Assembly (NCBI GenBank): GCA_018715625.1
Contig: DVLG01000054.1
Span: 4,160 to 68,159 of the forward strand
Reading direction: 5' to 3'
From: Candidatus Scatovivens faecipullorum
GTDB lineage: Bacteria; Bacillota; Clostridia; TANB77; CAG-508
DNA length: 64,000 nt
Shown piece after piece: positions 5,673 to 59,854 of the stretch. Numbering within the stretch: position 1 is the first letter of the stretch; every line of letters begins with the position of its first letter. The notes under the pieces are model-generated. The model ran no database searches. It was not told the DNA's origin and was given only the letters and a program-made list of their open reading frames with translations. A program made the translations under genes and the position numbers.

Positions 5673-5774
5673 TTGAACACTCCTTTCCTTTAGTATAACT
5701 TTTCATTTAACAAAAATCAAGTAAAATTATATATTTTTTTATTACATTTTTATAACATTATTAATAATATAAAG

Positions 5775-7928
5775 TTATATAGCATTATATAAAACTATCA
5801 TTTGTGATACATCTACTAGATCAATTTTACCATCTAAATTCATATCTGCTGCTTTTAATGGATTTCCAGATAATTCAAATCCCTTATTTTCATTATAATG
5901 TAAAATTAATTTTGAAACATCAGTTAAGTCTAATATACCGTCTGTTTTTATATCACCCCTTACAATTAAAGTATATTCTAATGAATCTGATAATTTTAGT
6001 TTCATTCCTGTTGCCAATACTTCATCACTATTTGTTATTTCAGTTCCTTGTTCATTATAAACTTTTTTAATTAAATTAGTGTCTATATTATTTAGAAATT
6101 CTTTCACTTTTGTTCCATGAGAAATTTTCATTATATATTTATTATCTATTACATATACATTTGAAGTTAATCCACCTTCATCTTCATCTTCATTAGGTTC
6201 TTGGTTATCATCTTCACCTGGAGTTTCATTTGGCTTTTCATCGTCATCTGGAGTTTGATCTGGATTTTCCTCTTTTGCTCCTAATGTTGTAAATGCTTTT
6301 ATACATACATCTGCTGTATCCATATCAATACCAGAAATACTTAAACTTGATAAATTTACCCAATTGTATCCATCTAAAGATATATAGCTTCTATTTTCAG
6401 AATCAGCAAATTCATACGCAGTTCCCGGCACACTAGCTTCTACTTCAAAATAAAATGCATCCCCTTCTGAAGTTTGTTTTACAACTATTGAAAAATCTCC
6501 TTCTTGTAATTCTACAGGTGTTATATCTACCCTATGATATCCAGGTGCTAAAACACCATCTGATTCTCCAACTTTTATTAAATTTTCATTTCTAAAACTA
6601 CTTCCATTAGGATTTACATAAACTTCAAAAGCTGCATAATCTGCAAGTGTCACGCCAACACTATTTAAAACTTCATCTTCTGAATTATCTTTGTTATACA
6701 CTACACCATAAGAACCTGTTTTTGTGCTTTGTGTACCAACTTGATATATTCCTCCATAATAGTCATATTGATAAATATTATCATAATCTACTTTAGAAGT
6801 AGATTGTATTCCATACATTTCATTTTCGATAATTGCATCTTCGTAAGAAATATACATATATCCATTGTCAAAAGATTCAGTTCCATAAGAATTAAGAACT
6901 ATATATGCACCATCTTCAGAAGGCTTAGCACCTTCTGCAAAATTATCTCTTGAATAATTATCATCCCAGCCAACTATTGTTATTGCATGATCTCTTATTA
7001 AACTGCTATCATTACAATTATAGGCAGTAGCTGCAAAAGGATTTTTTTGATTATTATAATATTGAGAATAATTTCCAGCTGTCATTGTAGCAATAGCACC
7101 ATATTTTACTAAATGTTCTTTTATAATATCTCTTAACGCATTAACTTCTTCTTTTGAATATTCATTACCATTTACATCAAAATAAGAAACTGATTTTGTA
7201 TTTCCAGTACCATCAATTTCATATTTTTTATAAATTGATGGTAAAATTTGATAATCAGTAACTACAGTATCAACTGGCTTATCTATTTCAGTTAAGTTTA
7301 TTTTTTCTTCATTATCTTCAAAAGGCATTTCTTCTTCTAAAACTGCTCCTTGACCATTGGTCAAATATGCTAAAGCTGAAATTGGAAGTCCACCATTTCC
7401 TAATTCCCTATTAAATCCATTTTCATTTATACCATCAAGAAAAGTTCTAGAAGTTGCATAATCAGCATGTCTTTCTGAAAAATTTGGTATATCTGTTAAA
7501 CCATTTTCTATAGCAATATTAGATTCCATAGATTTTAAGGTTGCAAAAGCCCAGCATTCTGTTGTACTGCCTTGGTGCTCAACTCTCAAATTCAACAAAT
7601 CTGCTAAAGAATATCTAGAGTTTGATACAGTTGCCGAAACATTATCAAATCCGCCAATCTTCTTGCCTAACAATGAATTTACTAAATACGGAACATCTTC
7701 CACTTCGTACTTATTCAAAATATTTTCTGGTACTTGTGCAGAATTTGTTTGTGGCATAAGTGTAGTTTCTTTTTCTTCTATTGTTAACTCATTCCAAACT
7801 TTGTATTCATCAGGAAGATTTACATTAAATTCAGTAGCAAAAACTTTTCCTGAAAATATACTAGAGAAAAGAATCGCACCTATTGAAATTACCCTAATTT
7901 TTTCTTTACTTAACTTATTTTTTTTCAT
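5775..7928 (-). CDS. Secreted C1 (papain-like) cysteine peptidase with a C-terminal type I dockerin
   Basis: Catalytic motifs QGSTTECWAF (Cys), DHAITIVGWDD (His) and LNSYG (Asn). The C-terminus has two Ca-binding dockerin repeats, GDIKTDGILDLTDVSKLILHY and ADMNLDGKIDLVDVSQMIVLY. I prefer the start at 7928 (MKKNKL...) because a GGTGAGGAG RBS precedes it. The ORF-track start at 7985 has no RBS. Confidence 0.8.
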   Translation of the reverse strand: MKKNKLSKEKIRVISIGAILFSSIFSGKVFATEFNVNLPDEYKVWNELTIEEKETTLMPQTNSAQVPENILNKYEVEDVPYLVNSLLGKKIGGFDNVSATVSNSRYSLADLLNLRVEHQGSTTECWAFATLKSMESNIAIENGLTDIPNFSERHADYATSRTFLDGINENGFNRELGNGGLPISALAYLTNGQGAVLEEEMPFEDNEEKINLTEIDKPVDTVVTDYQILPSIYKKYEIDGTGNTKSVSYFDVNGNEYSKEEVNALRDIIKEHLVKYGAIATMTAGNYSQYYNNQKNPFAATAYNCNDSSLIRDHAITIVGWDDNYSRDNFAEGAKPSEDGAYIVLNSYGTESFDNGYMYISYEDAIIENEMYGIQSTSKVDYDNIYQYDYYGGIYQVGTQSTKTGSYGVVYNKDNSEDEVLNSVGVTLADYAAFEVYVNPNGSSFRNENLIKVGESDGVLAPGYHRVDITPVELQEGDFSIVVKQTSEGDAFYFEVEASVPGTAYEFADSENRSYISLDGYNWVNLSSLSISGIDMDTADVCIKAFTTLGAKEENPDQTPDDDEKPNETPGEDDNQEPNEDEDEGGLTSNVYVIDNKYIMKISHGTKVKEFLNNIDTNLIKKVYNEQGTEITNSDEVLATGMKLKLSDSLEYTLIVRGDIKTDGILDLTDVSKLILHYNENKGFELSGNPLKAADMNLDGKIDLVDVSQMIVLYNAI

Positions 7929-54373: not shown

Positions 54374-56165
54374 TTATTCATTTTCTTCACTACTTGGTTC
54401 TAATTCTAAATAATTTATTACTTCATTTAAAATTTTTCCAGCTACTGGAGCAGCTACTGTTCCTCCCTGATGACCAGATGCTCCTGTAGGATTATATAAA
54501 GTTATTAATATAGCAACTTGAGGATCATCTGTTGGAGCCACTCCTAAAAATGATGTTACATATTTTCCTGTATTTACACCATCTTCTGAAGTTCCTGTTT
54601 TTCCACCAACATTATAACCTTGAACCCTTGCATTTTTTCCAGTACCTTCTGATACTACAGATGTCATCATACTTAAAACTTTTTTTGATGTTTCTTCTGA
54701 TATAACTTGATTTTTATATTCTGTAGCTATTTCTTGTTTTTCTCCTGTTTTAGAATCTACTATTGCTTTTACAACTCTTGGCTTTACATATAAACCATCA
54801 TTTGCTATTGTAGATACCATTGTTATCATTTGAATCGGTGTTACTTCGAATCTTTGACCAAAACTTATTGTTGCAAGTTCAACTGGTCCTACTTTATCTT
54901 CCTTTAAAAATATAGAACCTGCTTCACCTATTAAATCTATTCCCGTCTTTTCCAAAAAACCAAATTTTCTTAAATATTCATAATATTTTGTTACACCCAG
55001 TTTTTGACCTAATCCTATGAATATAGGATTGCATGAATTCATCAAAGCTTCTCTTAAGCTCTGTGATCCGTGAGGTCTATAATATCTCCAACATCTTATT
55101 CTCGTTCCAGCAATTTCTATACTTCCAGAACAATTATAAGCACCAGAAATATCAGTATCTGCTATTTTTTCTTCCAAAGCTGCTGAAGCTGTAACTAGTT
55201 TAAAAGTTGAACCGTGGTTCATAAGTATCTGCTATAGCTTTATTTCTCCACATTCCTTGCAAATATGTATTTTTTTGTGAACTATCAAGTTCACTCCAAA
55301 TATTTTGTATTTCATCATTATTTATAGTATATGGGTCATTTAAATCATAAAAAGGATATGTCGCCATTGCAAGTATATCTCCATTTTGTGGATTCATTAA
55401 TATTACATTTCCACCATCTGTACAAACATTTTCTATACATGCTTGTTGAAGATATTTTTCAGCTATTGCTTGAATATTCATATCTATTGTTAAAATTATA
55501 TCATTTCCTTGAGTTGCTTTTTCATATTCTTCTCCACTATCACCTATTATATTTCCCTTAGCATCTAACATTTTGCTAATACTACCATTTTCACCTGTAA
55601 GAACTTTGTCATATTTTGCTTCTATACCATCTAATCCTTGATTATCACTTCCTACAAAACCAATAATATGAGAAGCAAGAGTAGAATATGGATAATACCT
55701 TTTAGTATCTTCATCAATGTTTATTCCAGTATACAAATTATTTTCTTCCATCCAAACTCTCAATTGATCTGTTTTTTCCTTATCAACTCTCTTTACAATA
55801 GTTTCTATTGAACTATTTCTATTCACTTTTTTTAAAACCTTTTCATAATCCAATTCGAAAATCTCTGATAAAGCTTTTGATACCTTTTCTTTATTTTCTG
55901 CACTTATATTTACCGGATTAACAGTTACTGTTTCTACAGTACTACTTTGAGCAAGTATTATTTCTCCACTTGAATCAAAAATTGTTCCTCTCCCTGCAAT
56001 AATACTTCTACTAACATATTGCTGATTTTCTGACCTTGTTTTCCATTTCTCGCCTTCTATAAACTGTATAATCCCAACTCTAATAATCAATATTATCCAT
56101 ATAATATTAACAACAATTAAAATAAAAATCATTCTTTTTTTTGAGTTTAATTTACTACCTAACAT
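54374..56165 (-). pseudogene. Class B penicillin-binding protein (FtsI/PBP2B-like) interrupted by a one-base frameshift
   Basis: ORF 55200..56165 carries the TM and the dimerisation domain and ends ...DTYEPRFNF*. ORF 54374..55222 begins MNHGSTFK and holds the SxxK, SCN and KTGT transpeptidase motifs. Skipping one base in GAA CCA C GGT TCA restores YEPGSTFK. Confidence 0.8.
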
Positions 56166-56298
56166 TCATTTCCTCCAATGTTCCAATAGTAAATTTTATT
56201 ATTTAAATTAAAAAAAAGACCTATTTATAACACAAAATATAACATAAATCAAAATATGCACAAAAAAATACAAAAACCATTTTCAAAGCTTTTGTATT

Positions 56299-56844
56299 TT
56301 AAAATATATTTTTAATTTTTTCTAAAAGATTATCAAAAAAACTTTTTTCTTCTTCTATTATTACTTCTTCGGTTTTAGGCTCAACATAATCTTTTTTAGG
56401 AAGATTAATATATACAATTTGTTTTGGAGAAATTTTTTGCATTCCCAATAATTCTCTTGCCTTTTGCTCTATATTATTTATATTAGAATTATTTTGTATA
56501 CTTATTTCAAGTTGGTCATTTTCTTTCTCTATTGATGTAATCTGTGCTTTTAAATCTTGAATTTTTGAAAAAGCTTCACTAAGTTGGGAATTTCTAATAA
56601 GCATGAAAAATATTATTCCAAAAAGTAATAAACATTTTACAAAAACTAAAACTTTTGTTTTTCCAACCAACTTTTTTTGTTTTTTTATTTCTTCTTGCTT
56701 TTTATTCTTAATATTTGTTCTATTTTTGGTTGCAGTAGAAGATTTTTTAGTAGTTTTTTTAACTTTCTTTCTTGGACTATTATAGTCTGGTTTAATTTTT
56801 CTAGGACTTGTTTCATATTGATAACCATAATTTCTACTATTCAT
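56299..56844 (-). CDS. ftsL: FtsL/DivIC-like septum formation initiator
   Basis: Basic N-terminus, single TM, then the coiled coil LKAQITSIEKENDQLEISIQ. Positioned between rsmH and the PBP gene. Confidence 0.65.
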   Translation of the reverse strand: MNSRNYGYQYETSPRKIKPDYNSPRKKVKKTTKKSSTATKNRTNIKNKKQEEIKKQKKLVGKTKVLVFVKCLLLFGIIFFMLIRNSQLSEAFSKIQDLKAQITSIEKENDQLEISIQNNSNINNIEQKARELLGMQKISPKQIVYINLPKKDYVEPKTEEVIIEEEKSFFDNLLEKIKNIF

Positions 56845-56883
56845 GCCTTTATTCCTCCTTTCTTTAGTATCTTTTAAAATATA

Positions 56884-57810
56884 TTATTTCTTTTCAAAAA
56901 TTCGTAATTTAGCACTTTTACTTCTTGAATTTTCTTGCAATTCTGCTTCTTTAGGCAATAAAGGTTTTTTTGTTATTATTTTTCCTTTTGATTTTGCACC
57001 ACATACACAATAAGGTAAATCTGGTGGACAAGTACACTTTCCTATAGAATCATTAAATGCATTTTTTACTGCTCTATCTTCTAAAGAGTGAAAAGTAATT
57101 ACACACAATCTTCCACCTGAATTTAAAACATCTATTGAATCAATTATTGTTTGATAAAGTGGTTTTATCTCATTATTTACTTCTATTCTTATAGCTTGAA
57201 AAGTTCTTTTTGCTGGATGCCCTTCTTTATTTCTTCTAGGTACTATTCCTTCGATTATTTTTACAAGTTCGTCTGTTGTTTCAATTTCTTTATTTTTTCT
57301 ATAATCTACAATTTTTCTTGCTATTGCTCTAGAAAATCTTTCCTCTCCATATTCAAAAATAATTTTTGACAAATTTTCTTCACTATATTCATTAATAACT
57401 TTTTTAGCTGTTAATTCTTGAGTTTTATCCATTCTCATATCAAGAGTCGCATCTTTCATATAACTAAAGCCTCTATTTCTTTCATCTAATTGATATGAAG
57501 AAACCCCTAAGTCTAATAGTATTCCATCAACTCCTGTTATATCTAACTTTTCTAATATATTTTTAATATTGTCATGATTATCATGAACAAATTTTATATT
57601 ATTAAATTCTTTTAATCTTTCTTTTGCAACACAAATAGCTTCTTCATCTCTATCAATTCCTATAAGAAGCCCCTCTTTTGATATTCTTTTAGCTATCTCT
57701 TTGCTATGCCCTGCACCTCCCATAGTTCCATCTACATAGATTCCATTAGGTTTTATTGAAAGTCCTTCAATACATTCTTCTAGCATAACAGACTTATGAT
57801 TAAATTCCAA
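56884..57810 (-). CDS. rsmH: 16S rRNA (cytosine1402-N4)-methyltransferase
   Basis: HKSVML.E, DGT.GGAGHS, DLGVSS.QLD and SLEDR motifs. TTG start with a GAGGG RBS. Confidence 0.9.
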
Positions 57811-57859
57811 ATTACTACCCTCATGATAATTTTGCCTTATAGCATAAACAGTTGGTAAG

Positions 57860-57888
57860 ATTATACCAACTGTCTTGCTAAATTGTAA
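57860..57888 (-). promoter_or_regulatory. Putative internal promoter for rsmH and downstream dcw genes
   Basis: Minus-strand TTACAA, 17 nt, TATAAT, with an extended -10 TG (TGGTATAAT). It overlaps a 9-bp hairpin (57849-57872). Confidence 0.4.
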
Positions 57889-57893
57889 TTTTA

Positions 57894-58118
57894 TCTTTTG
57901 TAATTTTAATCTTTTTCTCTTTTGTATTTCAAAATTCTTTTGTATTATATATTTTTACCTTAGTAAATTATATATTTTTCTTTAGTATTACAAAATTTCT
58001 TTTGTAACTTATTCAATTATCTTTAGTTATCTAAAGATTTTATCTTTTGTATGCTTCATCTTTTGTAACTGTTTTCTTTTGTAAACTTAATCTTTTGTAC
58101 TTTATTTTTTCTTTTGTG
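57894..58118 (-). repeat. Array of nine direct repeats, TACAAAAGA on the coding strand
   Basis: Plus-strand TCTTTTGTA at 57894, 57918, 57936, 57998, 58043, 58059, 58075 and 58091, plus the variant TCTTTTGTG at 58110. Four consecutive copies are spaced exactly 16 bp apart. Confidence 0.85.
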
Positions 58119-58138
58119 ACTATATAAACTTTAGCAAG

Positions 58139-58564
58139 TTATATACCAAGCATTTCCATTTTTTCAGCTATTTCATCAGCTGAAATTTCATCATCTGTAT
58201 TTTGCCATTTATCTTTACTCCAAATTTCAAGTCTTGAATCCATACCAATAATTACTACTTCTTTTGTAAGTTCAGCAAATTCTCTTAAATTACTCGAAAT
58301 TAGAAATCTGCCTTGTTTATCGATTTCACAATCAATGGCTCCAGCGAAGAAAAATCTTGAGAAAGCTCTGGCATCTTTGTTAGAAATTGGAAGTGATCTT
58401 AGTTTTTGTTCAAAGTTTTTCCATTCTTCTAATGAAAAAGCAAATAAACAACCATCAAGTCCTTTGGTTATTATGAACTTTTCTCCAATGTCTTCTCTAA
58501 GCTTTGCTGGCATGATTAATCTGCCCTTAGCATCTAGAGAATGCTCATATTCGCCAATTAGCAA
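58139..58564 (-). CDS. mraZ: Transcriptional regulator MraZ
   Basis: 141 aa with two SpoVT-AbrB repeats ([14 protein letters not shown] and [14 protein letters not shown]). TTG start with an AGGAGA RBS. Confidence 0.9.
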
Positions 58565-58591
58565 CTCGATACATCTCCTTTCATTTTTCTA

Positions 58592-58617
58592 CCACTTTAT
58601 ACCACTTCTCTCCACTT
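58592..58617 (-). promoter_or_regulatory. Putative MraZ operator: three AAGTGG direct repeats at 10-bp spacing
   Basis: Plus-strand CCACTT at 58592, 58602 and 58612. On the coding strand this reads GAAGTGGagaGAAGTGGtatAAAGTGG, between the promoter -10 and the mraZ RBS. Confidence 0.65.
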
Positions 58618-58624
58618 CAATTAA

Positions 58625-58653
58625 ATTTTAATATATAACATTTTATTTTGCAA
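58625..58653 (-). promoter_or_regulatory. Sigma-A promoter of the dcw operon (Pmra)
   Basis: Minus-strand TTGCAA, 17 nt, TAAAAT, immediately upstream of the MraZ boxes. Confidence 0.55.
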
Positions 58654-58831
58654 GTATTTTTTAATATTTTTTTAAAAATTTTATTTTAATATCAAATATT
58701 TATATTTTAACTACATATAAAAGAGTTATAAATTTTACATTTCAATAATGATTAATAAATTAAATATACTATATATTGATTGTTTTTATAAAATTATGAT
58801 AAAATCTTTTCATAATTTAAGGAGATTTAGA

Positions 58832-59320
58832 ATGACTGAAATACAACTAACCGGTTTATTTTTAAACTTTATAATATATTTAATAATGATTTTTCCAGTA
58901 ATAATTATTTCTTTAAATAAAAAAAATTACGAAAATAAAAATCATTTTATTTCAATTGTTATTTTTAGTTTTATAATTGAAATAATCTTATCTTTTTCTT
59001 TATATAAATTTTCTCCAAATATATTTAGTTTTTTTTCAAATACTCCTGGAATAGTAAACTATTCTGTATATGCCTCAAAAATTTTATTTATAAGTAGTAG
59101 TTTATTTGGAATAAAAATTTTATTTCCTGTATATTTAATTCAAAATAATATGAAAAAAAAATCAGCAATTCTTGTTTTTTCAAAAATTGCCGTTTTGCTT
59201 ATTTTTATCCTTATTGGATATAATCTATTTAACTTTAAAGGATTGCTATTTGCATTTCCAGTATCTGATTTAATTTTTTATATAATTTATATTATTGTAT
59301 TTTTAAATATTATTAGATAA
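58832..59320 (+). CDS. Hypothetical polytopic membrane protein, possibly a remnant of a MATE/MOP-family C-terminal half
   Basis: I prefer the start at 58832 (RBS AGGAGA) over 58748. Four or five TM helices. The resemblance to MATE C-terminal helices is weak and based on pattern only. Confidence 0.4.
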   Translation: MTEIQLTGLFLNFIIYLIMIFPVIIISLNKKNYENKNHFISIVIFSFIIEIILSFSLYKFSPNIFSFFSNTPGIVNYSVYASKILFISSSLFGIKILFPVYLIQNNMKKKSAILVFSKIAVLLIFILIGYNLFNFKGLLFAFPVSDLIFYIIYIIVFLNIIR

Positions 59321-59854
59321 TATATCTAGATTCGCCTCTAAAGCATCTCTTGTTGTAAGCCCTGCTTTTGCATTCATAATACTATTATCTTCTGCTATAT
59401 AAATCATTGATGGAAACTCTGAAATATTATACTTTAATACACCTTCTTTATATAAATCATAATATATTTCCATAGAAATACTATTTTTTATTTCATCACT
59501 AACTTTTTCTGTAGTATTAATCATAAAAAAATTAATTTTATCTTTATATTTTTCATACATTTCATTTACTCTTTTTAACATCTCCACAGCGTCTTCTGTA
59601 TCTTCATTCCAAAATAAAATCATTACTGGTTTATCTTTATAATTTGATAATCTTACTTCACTTCTATCTTCTCTATAAAATACAAAATCTGTATAATCCA
59701 CATCTTCTAAATCTTTTGTTTTAGAAACTTCTTCTACTTCTATATTATTTTGACTATTTTCTTTTTTTGAATTGATTGAAAAAATTAAAAAAACTAATGC
59801 CAAACAAAATATAATAATACCAATTATTAAAATAATAACATTTTTTTTATTCAC
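59303..59854 (-). CDS. Membrane-anchored thioredoxin-fold (TlpA/ResA-like) protein lacking the CXXC motif
   Basis: N-terminal TM. KPVMILFWNEDTEDAVEML aligns where TlpA-like proteins have FWATWCPPC. The FPSMIYI..DNSI region resembles the cis-Pro loop. Confidence 0.5.
   Translation of the reverse strand: MNKKNVIILIIGIIIFCLALVFLIFSINSKKENSQNNIEVEEVSKTKDLEDVDYTDFVFYREDRSEVRLSNYKDKPVMILFWNEDTEDAVEMLKRVNEMYEKYKDKINFFMINTTEKVSDEIKNSISMEIYYDLYKEGVLKYNISEFPSMIYIAEDNSIMNAKAGLTTRDALEANLDILSNNI

Follow-up and report, generated by a model that had tools for sequence, protein, structure and literature searches.

The spacer between mraZ and rsmH in Candidatus Scatovivens faecipullorum, which lies within a 64,000-nucleotide (nt) stretch of contig DVLG01000054.1 (the window), carries an array of direct repeats with the core ACAAAAGA on its coding strand. 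With somewhat better than even confidence, we read this spacer as an RNA platform that would offer several sites to a sequence-specific factor tuning downstream expression. The array appears to belong to a widespread and undescribed group of clostridial leaders and intercistronic spacers with ACAAAAGA repeats, which typically abut a hairpin or a terminator.

Eight copies of TACAAAAGA are found in the spacer, all on the minus (coding) strand. The sequence CACAAAAGA at 58110-58118 raises the total to nine ACAAAAGA cores, and two ACTAAAGA variants (58020-58027 and 57979-57986) bring the number of sites to 11 in all. Four copies are spaced by exactly 16 nt, and Tandem Repeats Finder reports a period of 16 with 4.5 copies over 58042-58110. 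These are the eight perfect copies and one variant, four of them at 16-bp intervals on the coding strand, described in the original prediction, which had been made from the letters of the window. Its claim of local enrichment also holds: the whole window has 13 copies of TACAAAAGA where 2.9 ± 1.9 are expected, a count reached in 0 of 100 shuffles. A stray copy that it placed at 56289-56296 is not there. Outside the spacer, the window has ten more 8-mers and five more 9-mers, all scattered on the minus strand, with one such extra copy inside mraZ at 58260. No second array of three or more relaxed ACNAAAGA sites occurs elsewhere in the 64 kb. From the mraZ end to the rsmH end, the elements of the spacer are:

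57811-58138, minus strand: the mraZ-rsmH spacer, 328 bp.
58121-58145, minus strand: predicted hairpin H1, UAUAUAACUU-GCUA-AAGUUUAUAUA, over the mraZ stop codon (from the fold).
58043-58118, minus strand: proximal cluster of five sites, CACAAAAGA and then four TACAAAAGA at 16 nt.
58019-58038, minus strand: small predicted hairpin AUCUUUAG-AUAA-CUAAAGAU, which holds the ACTAAAGA variant at 58020-58027 and is kept in close relatives.
57988-58007, minus strand: predicted hairpin UUACAAAAG-AAA-UUUUGUAA, which sequesters the sixth site (57998-58006) and is present in a subset of relatives.
57944-57987, minus strand: conserved central block with a 23-nt direct repeat (AAAAAUAUAUAAU twice) and the ACTAAAGA variant at 57979-57986.
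57894-57944, minus strand: distal cluster of three TACAAAAGA sites, the last of which ends 14 nt before the terminal hairpin.
57840-57880, minus strand: terminal hairpin H4, UAGCAAGACAGUUGGUA-UAAUCU-UACCAACUGUUUAUGCUA, 17-20 bp, about -22 kcal/mol.
57817-57822, minus strand: Shine-Dalgarno sequence GAGGGU of rsmH, kept as (U)GAGGG in relatives.

Relatives were collected by scanning one genome per species with MraZ. This gave 80 loci with MraZ 73-96% identical, all from uncultured gut Clostridia and some labelled Candidatus Scatovivens; a listing of MraZ homologues returned near relatives only (at least 88% identity). In every one of the 79 loci that include rsmH, the spacer is long (195-781 bp) and contains ACAAAAGA 1-13 times in coding orientation and at most once in the other. 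Such a comparison of the spacer in related genomes had been proposed in the original prediction, whose description of the spacer as unusually long is borne out both here and in these 79 species. Pooled, the spacers (29 kb) contain 484 copies and the same-strand flanks (574 kb) contain 117, an 81-fold enrichment; the reverse complement of ACAAAAGA is found twice in the spacers. No second cluster of the motif was found in the relatives' flanks.

The motif logo obtained from the relatives' spacers is (U>A,C)AC(A>U,G,C)AAAGA(U/A)AAA. Position 3 of the core accepts any base, with 658 occurrences of ACNAAAGA and 165 position-3 variants (U, G or C). Positions flanking the core carry little information, and the sequence between copies has diverged across relatives. 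A free position 3 together with uninformative flanks fits recognition by a protein better than base pairing. Start-to-start spacing is bimodal, at 16-19 and 22-25 nt with a trough at 20-21. An alternation of short and long spacings, as if sites were paired, was considered (30 short-short (SS) successions against 48.6 expected, p=0.03, chi-square); the effect is weak, the sequences are related, and it is not relied on. At one locus (L003:4427-4954, mraZ-rsmH spacer), a recent tandem duplication, its period about 41 nt, has raised the count to 13 cores. The unit there consists of two sites, with one short and one long interval, which hints that the two-site unit may be what gets duplicated. Within the species the array is not an unstable repeat, since ten of ten same-species contigs share the 328-nt spacer with a single nucleotide polymorphism, located outside the sites.

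Arrays of the same kind recur in other lineages and at other loci. A metagenome scan for three cores at unequal spacing listed at least 119 matches. Among the matches listed, many are unrelated tandem or coding repeats, and at least 23 adjoin mraZ or rsmH. These listed mraZ- or rsmH-adjacent arrays reach organisms with MraZ 35-62% identical and local GC content up to 47%. The distant arrays have the same logo and spacing and lie on the sense strand of the local transcript in every case examined. They usually end 4-22 nt before a hairpin or terminator, and each distant locus has one array region. The module is found at three positions of the same operon in different lineages (mraZ leader, mraZ-rsmH and rsmH-ftsL), and the mraZ-rsmH gap is short in distant Clostridia that carry the array at another operon position. 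The contexts are:

L300/L221 ("Clostridiales bacterium"): array in the 5′ leader of mraZ, after the promoter and GTGG boxes.
L228/L248 and others: array in the mraZ-rsmH spacer, with MraZ 54% identical.
L245, L268, L301 and L305: array between rsmH and an FtsL-family gene, with a short mraZ-rsmH gap.
L207 and L307: array that follows a 6S RNA gene and precedes an intrinsic terminator, with a 741-amino-acid SpoIID-domain gene beyond.
L316: array ahead of a 3D-domain protein gene.
L239: array in the leader of a small XRE-type helix-turn-helix gene.
L284: array in a phosphotransferase system (PTS) fructose IIB-IIC spacer; the IIB is identical to a protein of Eubacterium ventriosum ATCC 27560.
L293 and L219: stand-alone units resembling small RNAs (sRNAs), each with its own promoter-like site and terminator.

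Taken over these contexts, the bias of the arrays towards division and cell-wall genes is strong. The 6S RNA genes are assigned by Rfam at 71 bits (L207:6703-6882, minus strand) and 59 bits (L307:2124-2316, plus strand), both in Lachnospiraceae-like lineages. No terminator separates the 6S RNA from the five ACAAAAGA sites; an intrinsic terminator and then the SpoIID-domain gene follow. The 6S RNA may be made there with a 3′ trailer that carries the array. In L307, a T-box leader unrelated to the array (5721-5950, plus strand; 123 bits) lies some 3 kb further downstream. Three further loci (L205, L241 and L244) belong to another AT-rich repeat family, ACAAAAGAG within a small hairpin (AAAGAGGAUAUCCUCUUU), that fits the search pattern yet is unlike the single-stranded arrays. 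In viral contigs, the matches to the equal-spacing three-copy pattern were all coding or tandem repeats, in giant viruses and phages, and the unequal-spacing patterns returned nothing relevant. Rfam cmscan of 56500-59500 at E<=10 gave spurious matches elsewhere only and none on the spacer, the whole window at the gathering threshold gave no match, and the arrays in L239, L284, L316 and L293 are likewise unmatched in Rfam. Full-text searches of the literature found no description of the motif and nothing relevant on mraZ with KhpB.

Conserved structure lies on both sides of the array. Hairpin H1 is kept in relatives with varying loops (GCUA, GCAA, GAAA, UUUGA, UUAU, UCU), and relatives whose mraZ stop codon is displaced upstream retain a separate H1 5′ arm in non-coding sequence. 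H4 stands about 30 nt upstream of the rsmH ribosome-binding site and contains the hairpin first noticed near 57849-57872, here found with 10-nt perfect arms (57848-57857 and 57864-57873). Its stability in relatives is -18 to -27 kcal/mol. The upper stem, CAGUUGGUA/UACCAACUG, is identical in 57 sequences, and the loop varies, with 8-15 nt between UUGG and CCAAC. Compensatory pairs are seen in the lower stem in per-sequence folds (UAGCA/UGCUA, AGCU/AGCU, GCACA/UGUGC, GGCAG/CUGCC, GUAG/CUAC), and several G.U pairs in H4 are valid on the sense strand only. A covariance model of H4 (R1) matches exactly once per locus and scores the window at 66.7 bits in sense against 30.7 in antisense. The R1 alignment mis-registers the lower stem between clades, and its per-pair counts were set aside in favor of the per-sequence folds. 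About 20 species have an unrelated hairpin in the H4 position, namely AUAGGUCGCC...GACGACCUAU, GGCGG...CCGCC or AGGAUGC...GCAUCCU, or else clear terminators. The tail of H4, UUUAUGCUAU, pairs into the lower stem, and the terminator scan called none there; clear U-tracts are present in some lineages (L045-L050, L028/L036, L055, L059/L060). No alternative helix competing with H4 appears in the folds, and H4 is long enough to be a substrate for a double-strand RNase.

Between the two hairpins the sites are predicted to be mostly open. Predicted unpaired probability is 0.73 at motif positions and 0.48 in the rest of the spacer, a difference that is partly compositional, and the pattern is found in 79 of 80 spacers. 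Together, the features of H1 and H4 indicate selection on RNA structure, from which it follows that the spacer is probably transcribed. The 5′ arm of H4 (CAGUUGGUA, 57864-57873), invariant in 57 species, has the same sequence as a common tRNA D-loop and also resembles the local MraZ box AGUGGUA plus one U.

The genes of the mraZ-rsmH region in the window are all on the minus strand, in the following order along the putative transcript:

58625-58653, minus strand: promoter-like site TTGCAA-17-TAAAAT upstream of mraZ (consensus scan), a putative promoter.
58590-58615, minus strand: MraZ boxes GTGGAG / GTGGTA / GTGGTA with a period of 10.
58139-58564, minus strand: mraZ, 141 amino acids (open reading frame (ORF); Pfam MraZ matched on the identical protein).
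56884-57810, minus strand: rsmH, 308 amino acids, TTG start, followed by ftsL and a penicillin-binding protein (PBP) gene (ORFs).

The site at 58625-58653 is probably the source of the array-bearing transcript. The boxes at 58590-58615 agree with the published consensus for MraZ binding in Firmicutes, GTGG[A/T]G three times with 4-nt spacers (bioRxiv 10.1101/2022.02.09.479790). The array has no GTGG and is distinct from these genuine boxes upstream of mraZ, as first proposed. For the products of rsmH, ftsL and the PBP gene, Pfam Methyltransf_5, DivIC and PBP_dimer were matched on same-species contigs. The PBP gene (FtsI/SpoVD-like; 54374-56165, minus strand) is split after ftsL into a 321-amino-acid PBP-dimer ORF and a 282-amino-acid transpeptidase ORF, with the junction at 55200-55222. 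The split is due to one additional C (CCA-C-GGT) directly 5′ of the active-site motif STFK. It is common to ten of ten same-species contigs and to the closest species (L001), and most relatives have the PBP as one ORF of 576-674 amino acids. It could be either a fixed frameshift (a pseudogene or split gene) or a programmed frameshift.

Several other explanations of the array have to be weighed. It might be an operator on DNA, with iteron-like sites for a transcription factor at an internal promoter of rsmH and the downstream dcw genes, as the original prediction allowed. The promoter-like sequence is present:

57860-57888, minus strand: promoter-like TTACAA-17-TGGTATAAT (consensus scan), its -10 within the H4 loop.

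In the window this is a near-consensus extended -10 match right after the last repeat; the direct repeats form two clusters around a central block in a layout resembling parC or iterons, and transcription of the spacer is itself deduced from sequence. The element is not conserved as a promoter, however. The T at position 6 of the -10 is found in 22 of 53 relatives, about background, the loop that bears the -10 varies in length and sequence, and the -35 is absent from more distant relatives. A sigma-70-type test of 57860-57888 likewise matched the consensus in the window without conserved hexamers. Spacings of 16-19 and 22-25 nt show no helical phasing, and in about ten independent contexts the array is always in sense and inside transcription units, including the stretch from 6S RNA to its terminator and the region downstream of the mraZ promoter and MraZ boxes. 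Since G.U pairs and covariation mark RNA structure on both sides of the array as well, an operator is improbable.

Two further readings of the DNA around H1 and H4 were examined. The flanking 9-bp inverted repeat of the original prediction is real and can be lengthened to 14 nt (57874-57887 with 58125-58138, 86% complementarity), though not as a helix bracketing the array. A long-range helix between the 9-nt arms was rejected: the 3′ arm varies (UUAAGCUAG, UUAAGCAGG, AAAGCUGAG) against a constant 5′ arm without compensation. The 3′ arm is the 5′ strand of the H4 lower stem and pairs locally with UGCUA on the downstream side of the terminal hairpin. Because it varies uncompensated and pairs locally, the two arms are better explained as the H1 loop region and the H4 lower stem. 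A sigma-54 promoter at the mraZ end (TTGGTATATAACTTGCT, GG-N10-GC) was also discarded. Its GG is a glycine codon of MraZ that becomes AG, TG or CG when the stop codon moves, and its GC sits in the variable loop of H1.

Cleavage is a real alternative and overlaps with the platform model. Here the repeats would be sites for an endoribonuclease (RNase Y or a toxin RNase) that uncouples mraZ from the fate of the rsmH-ftsL mRNA, with the hairpins as exonuclease blocks. RNase Y prefers to cut after G in A/U-rich single strands, and the sites are single-stranded, A/U-rich, endowed with a lone G and bracketed by protective hairpins. Arrays are also located between cistrons and in the 3′ trailers of 6S RNA, which need trimming, and RNase III reportedly cleaves mraZ mRNA in Corynebacterium. 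A strict motif of 8-9 nt with an invariant C nevertheless exceeds the known preferences of general RNases, a single cut needs no multiple copies, and UACAA differs from UACAU, the motif of Firmicute MazF; a dedicated target array is accordingly rated unlikely. The repeats might instead pair with a trans-acting small RNA carrying a UCUUUUGU seed, as a sponge that titrates it or a target regulated by it. Multiple short motifs on an mRNA spacer look like target mimics, the ChiX-trapping chbBC spacer lies, as in L284, between PTS IIB and IIC, and some array RNAs stand alone and have a terminator of their own (L293, L219). Yet core position 3 takes U, G or C in 165 variants, each a mismatch in the middle of an 8-bp duplex, with no bias to substitutions compatible with G.U. 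The complementary UCUUUUGU is absent from the window's transcripts, we know of no candidate small RNA with such a seed, and the chances of a sponge seem poor. A functionless repeat, of low complexity or left by slippage within an A-rich spacer, is very improbable. The AT content of the genome is very high, L003 has its recent 41-nt expansion, and ACAAAAGA also occurs inside many unrelated tandem repeats elsewhere, but slippage leaves unexplained why the core is kept in 79 species and the sequence between cores is not. Nor does it fit the 81-fold enrichment with complete strand bias, the constant copy number within the species, or the same core in organisms of 40-47% GC with MraZ 35-40% identical.

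The reading of the spacer as an RNA platform, one of three roles floated in the original prediction (the iteron or promoter-operator role and the centromere role find no support), leads to the following model. The spacer would be a non-coding transcribed module within a mraZ-rsmH-ftsL-pbp transcript. From 5′ to 3′, it would consist of the stop-codon hairpin, 9-11 mostly single-stranded (U)AC(N)AAAGA sites 16-25 nt apart, and the stable hairpin. A sequence-specific RNA-binding factor, most likely a protein, would occupy several sites at once, which the minimum spacing of about 16 nt makes feasible. A protein is likelier than an RNA as the binder because the mid-core position is free and substitutions there do not preserve pairing. 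Because the final site of the array adjoins a stable hairpin that precedes the ribosome-binding site of the next gene, site occupancy probably alters read-through, processing or stability of the downstream RNA. The output of rsmH-ftsL-pbp could in this way be set independently of MraZ autorepression at the operon promoter, and the stand-alone and 6S-linked arrays could titrate the same factor.

Several observations weigh against this model. We infer all of its functional claims from sequence, including the binding of the sites by a factor, the protein nature of that factor and the regulatory output. The invariant upper stem of H4 offers no covariation of its own, and the lower-stem signal is modest (8.0 extra pairs in the H4 flanks against 5.1 in shuffled flanks, in A/U-rich flanks of mutually related sequences). 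H4 has no clean U-tract and is not called as a terminator, so termination, processing and stabilization are indistinguishable. The higher unpaired probability of the motif owes something to composition, the pooled spacers being 51% A and 12% G. A PTS operon, a tRNA-proximal unit and a recombinase neighbor misfit a pure cell-wall regulon. Direct examination covered about 3% of one genome (64 kb) and the syntenic flanks in relatives, and the metagenome scan is represented by its at least 119 listed matches.

A broader proposal, which we hold tentatively and with distinctly less confidence than the platform itself, is that UACAAAAGA arrays are the code of an unrecognized global post-transcriptional regulator of a clostridial division and wall regulon. 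The regulon would include mraZ/rsmH/ftsL/pbp and SpoIID-type and 3D-domain hydrolases, controlled through repeat-plus-hairpin leaders and buffered by the stand-alone and 6S-linked arrays. The binder could be the KhpA/KhpB (EloR/Jag) pair. Division mRNAs, ftsL and ftsZ among them, are recovered with these proteins in F. nucleatum, S. pneumoniae and C. difficile; the proteins affect cell division, and their binding motif is undefined (PMC11039985; PMC10117727). This makes KhpA/KhpB a reasonable candidate, on circumstantial grounds; if it does bind, envelope sensing would be tied to dcw expression by way of the arrays.

Most of what is understood about dcw/mra operon control concerns the action of MraZ at the promoter, and to our knowledge the post-transcriptional tuning of ftsL and PBP genes is largely unknown in Firmicutes. 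Besides many gut Clostridia that are uncultured, at least one species in culture, Eubacterium ventriosum, carries the motif, which defines a candidate regulon from sequence alone. It could supply the recognition sequence of a known but poorly defined RNA-binding protein. The array also offers a bait for isolating the binding factor. The long mraZ-rsmH gap of this clade would be a functional insertion of a mobile regulatory module, not junk.

None of the WalR, PhoP, DnaA, Spo0A and SpoIIID boxes, Rho rut sites and MazF sites appears to fit the conserved positions of the motif, and neither does pairing with the anti-Shine-Dalgarno sequence or the tRNA-Lys anticodon. Plasmid iterons and parC centromeres share direct repeats in two clusters around a central block. 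They differ in being double-stranded DNA elements with fixed phasing beside rep or par genes; the broad spacing here, at 16-19 and 22-25, does not follow a period of about 10-11 or 21-22 bp. No rep or par gene lies near the array, whose neighbors are mraZ, rsmH, ftsL and pbp and which is chromosomal and syntenic in 79 species, so that a centromere- or replication-type element, another early suggestion, is not upheld. The mraW RNA motif (Rfam RF01746) is a cis-regulatory RNA candidate found, like the array, just upstream of mraW/rsmH in the dcw cluster. It is a single hairpin with a conserved loop in Actinobacteria, unlike the present module, and cmscan at E<=10 gave no match to it here.

The Hfq-sequestering RNAs CrcZ and CrcY of Pseudomonas also carry repeated A-rich motifs. 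Their genes directly follow a regulator gene, whose read-through transcript can be processed to release them. Unlike theirs, ACAAAAGA has an invariant C and an invariant G where the AAnAAnAA/ARN rule either allows any base or demands an A, and for this reason recognition by Hfq would not readily explain the motif. Set against (ARN)n, AAA-AGA fits two triplets, but the invariant C occupies a position where any base is allowed, and the U ahead of the core (62-73%) puts the series out of frame. RNA immunoprecipitation sequencing of C. difficile Hfq gave a degenerate motif only (PMC8583004).

The trp leader bound by TRAP in Bacillus, with 11 (G/U)AG repeats followed by a terminator, resembles the array in placing about ten sites directly upstream of a hairpin or terminator, a layout that would suit an oligomeric or multi-copy binder. 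In contrast to its triplets with linkers of 2-3 nt, the present sites are 8-9 nt long with linkers of 8-17 nt, no competing antiterminator structure appears in the folds, and the array here is intercistronic. The decoys CsrB and RsmZ and the leaders bound by CsrA likewise bring many short single-stranded motifs together on one RNA, in leaders as well as stand-alone RNAs. The array has the accessible copies of a CsrB-type RNA (9-11 here and 1-13 in relatives, with an unpaired probability of 0.73) and stand-alone counterparts in L293 and L219. The expected logic, binding or titration of a global RNA-binding protein, would be the same, and the resemblance is functional only. Unlike in the CsrA RNAs, the motif is UACAAAAGA and not GGA (0 GGA in the 328-nt spacer), the sites are not in hairpin loops, and the targets of the arrays are mostly cell-wall and cell-division genes. 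Among these systems, the array would stand as an RNA platform of repeated sites whose motif, binding partner and target set are all new, built on an overall logic that is already known.

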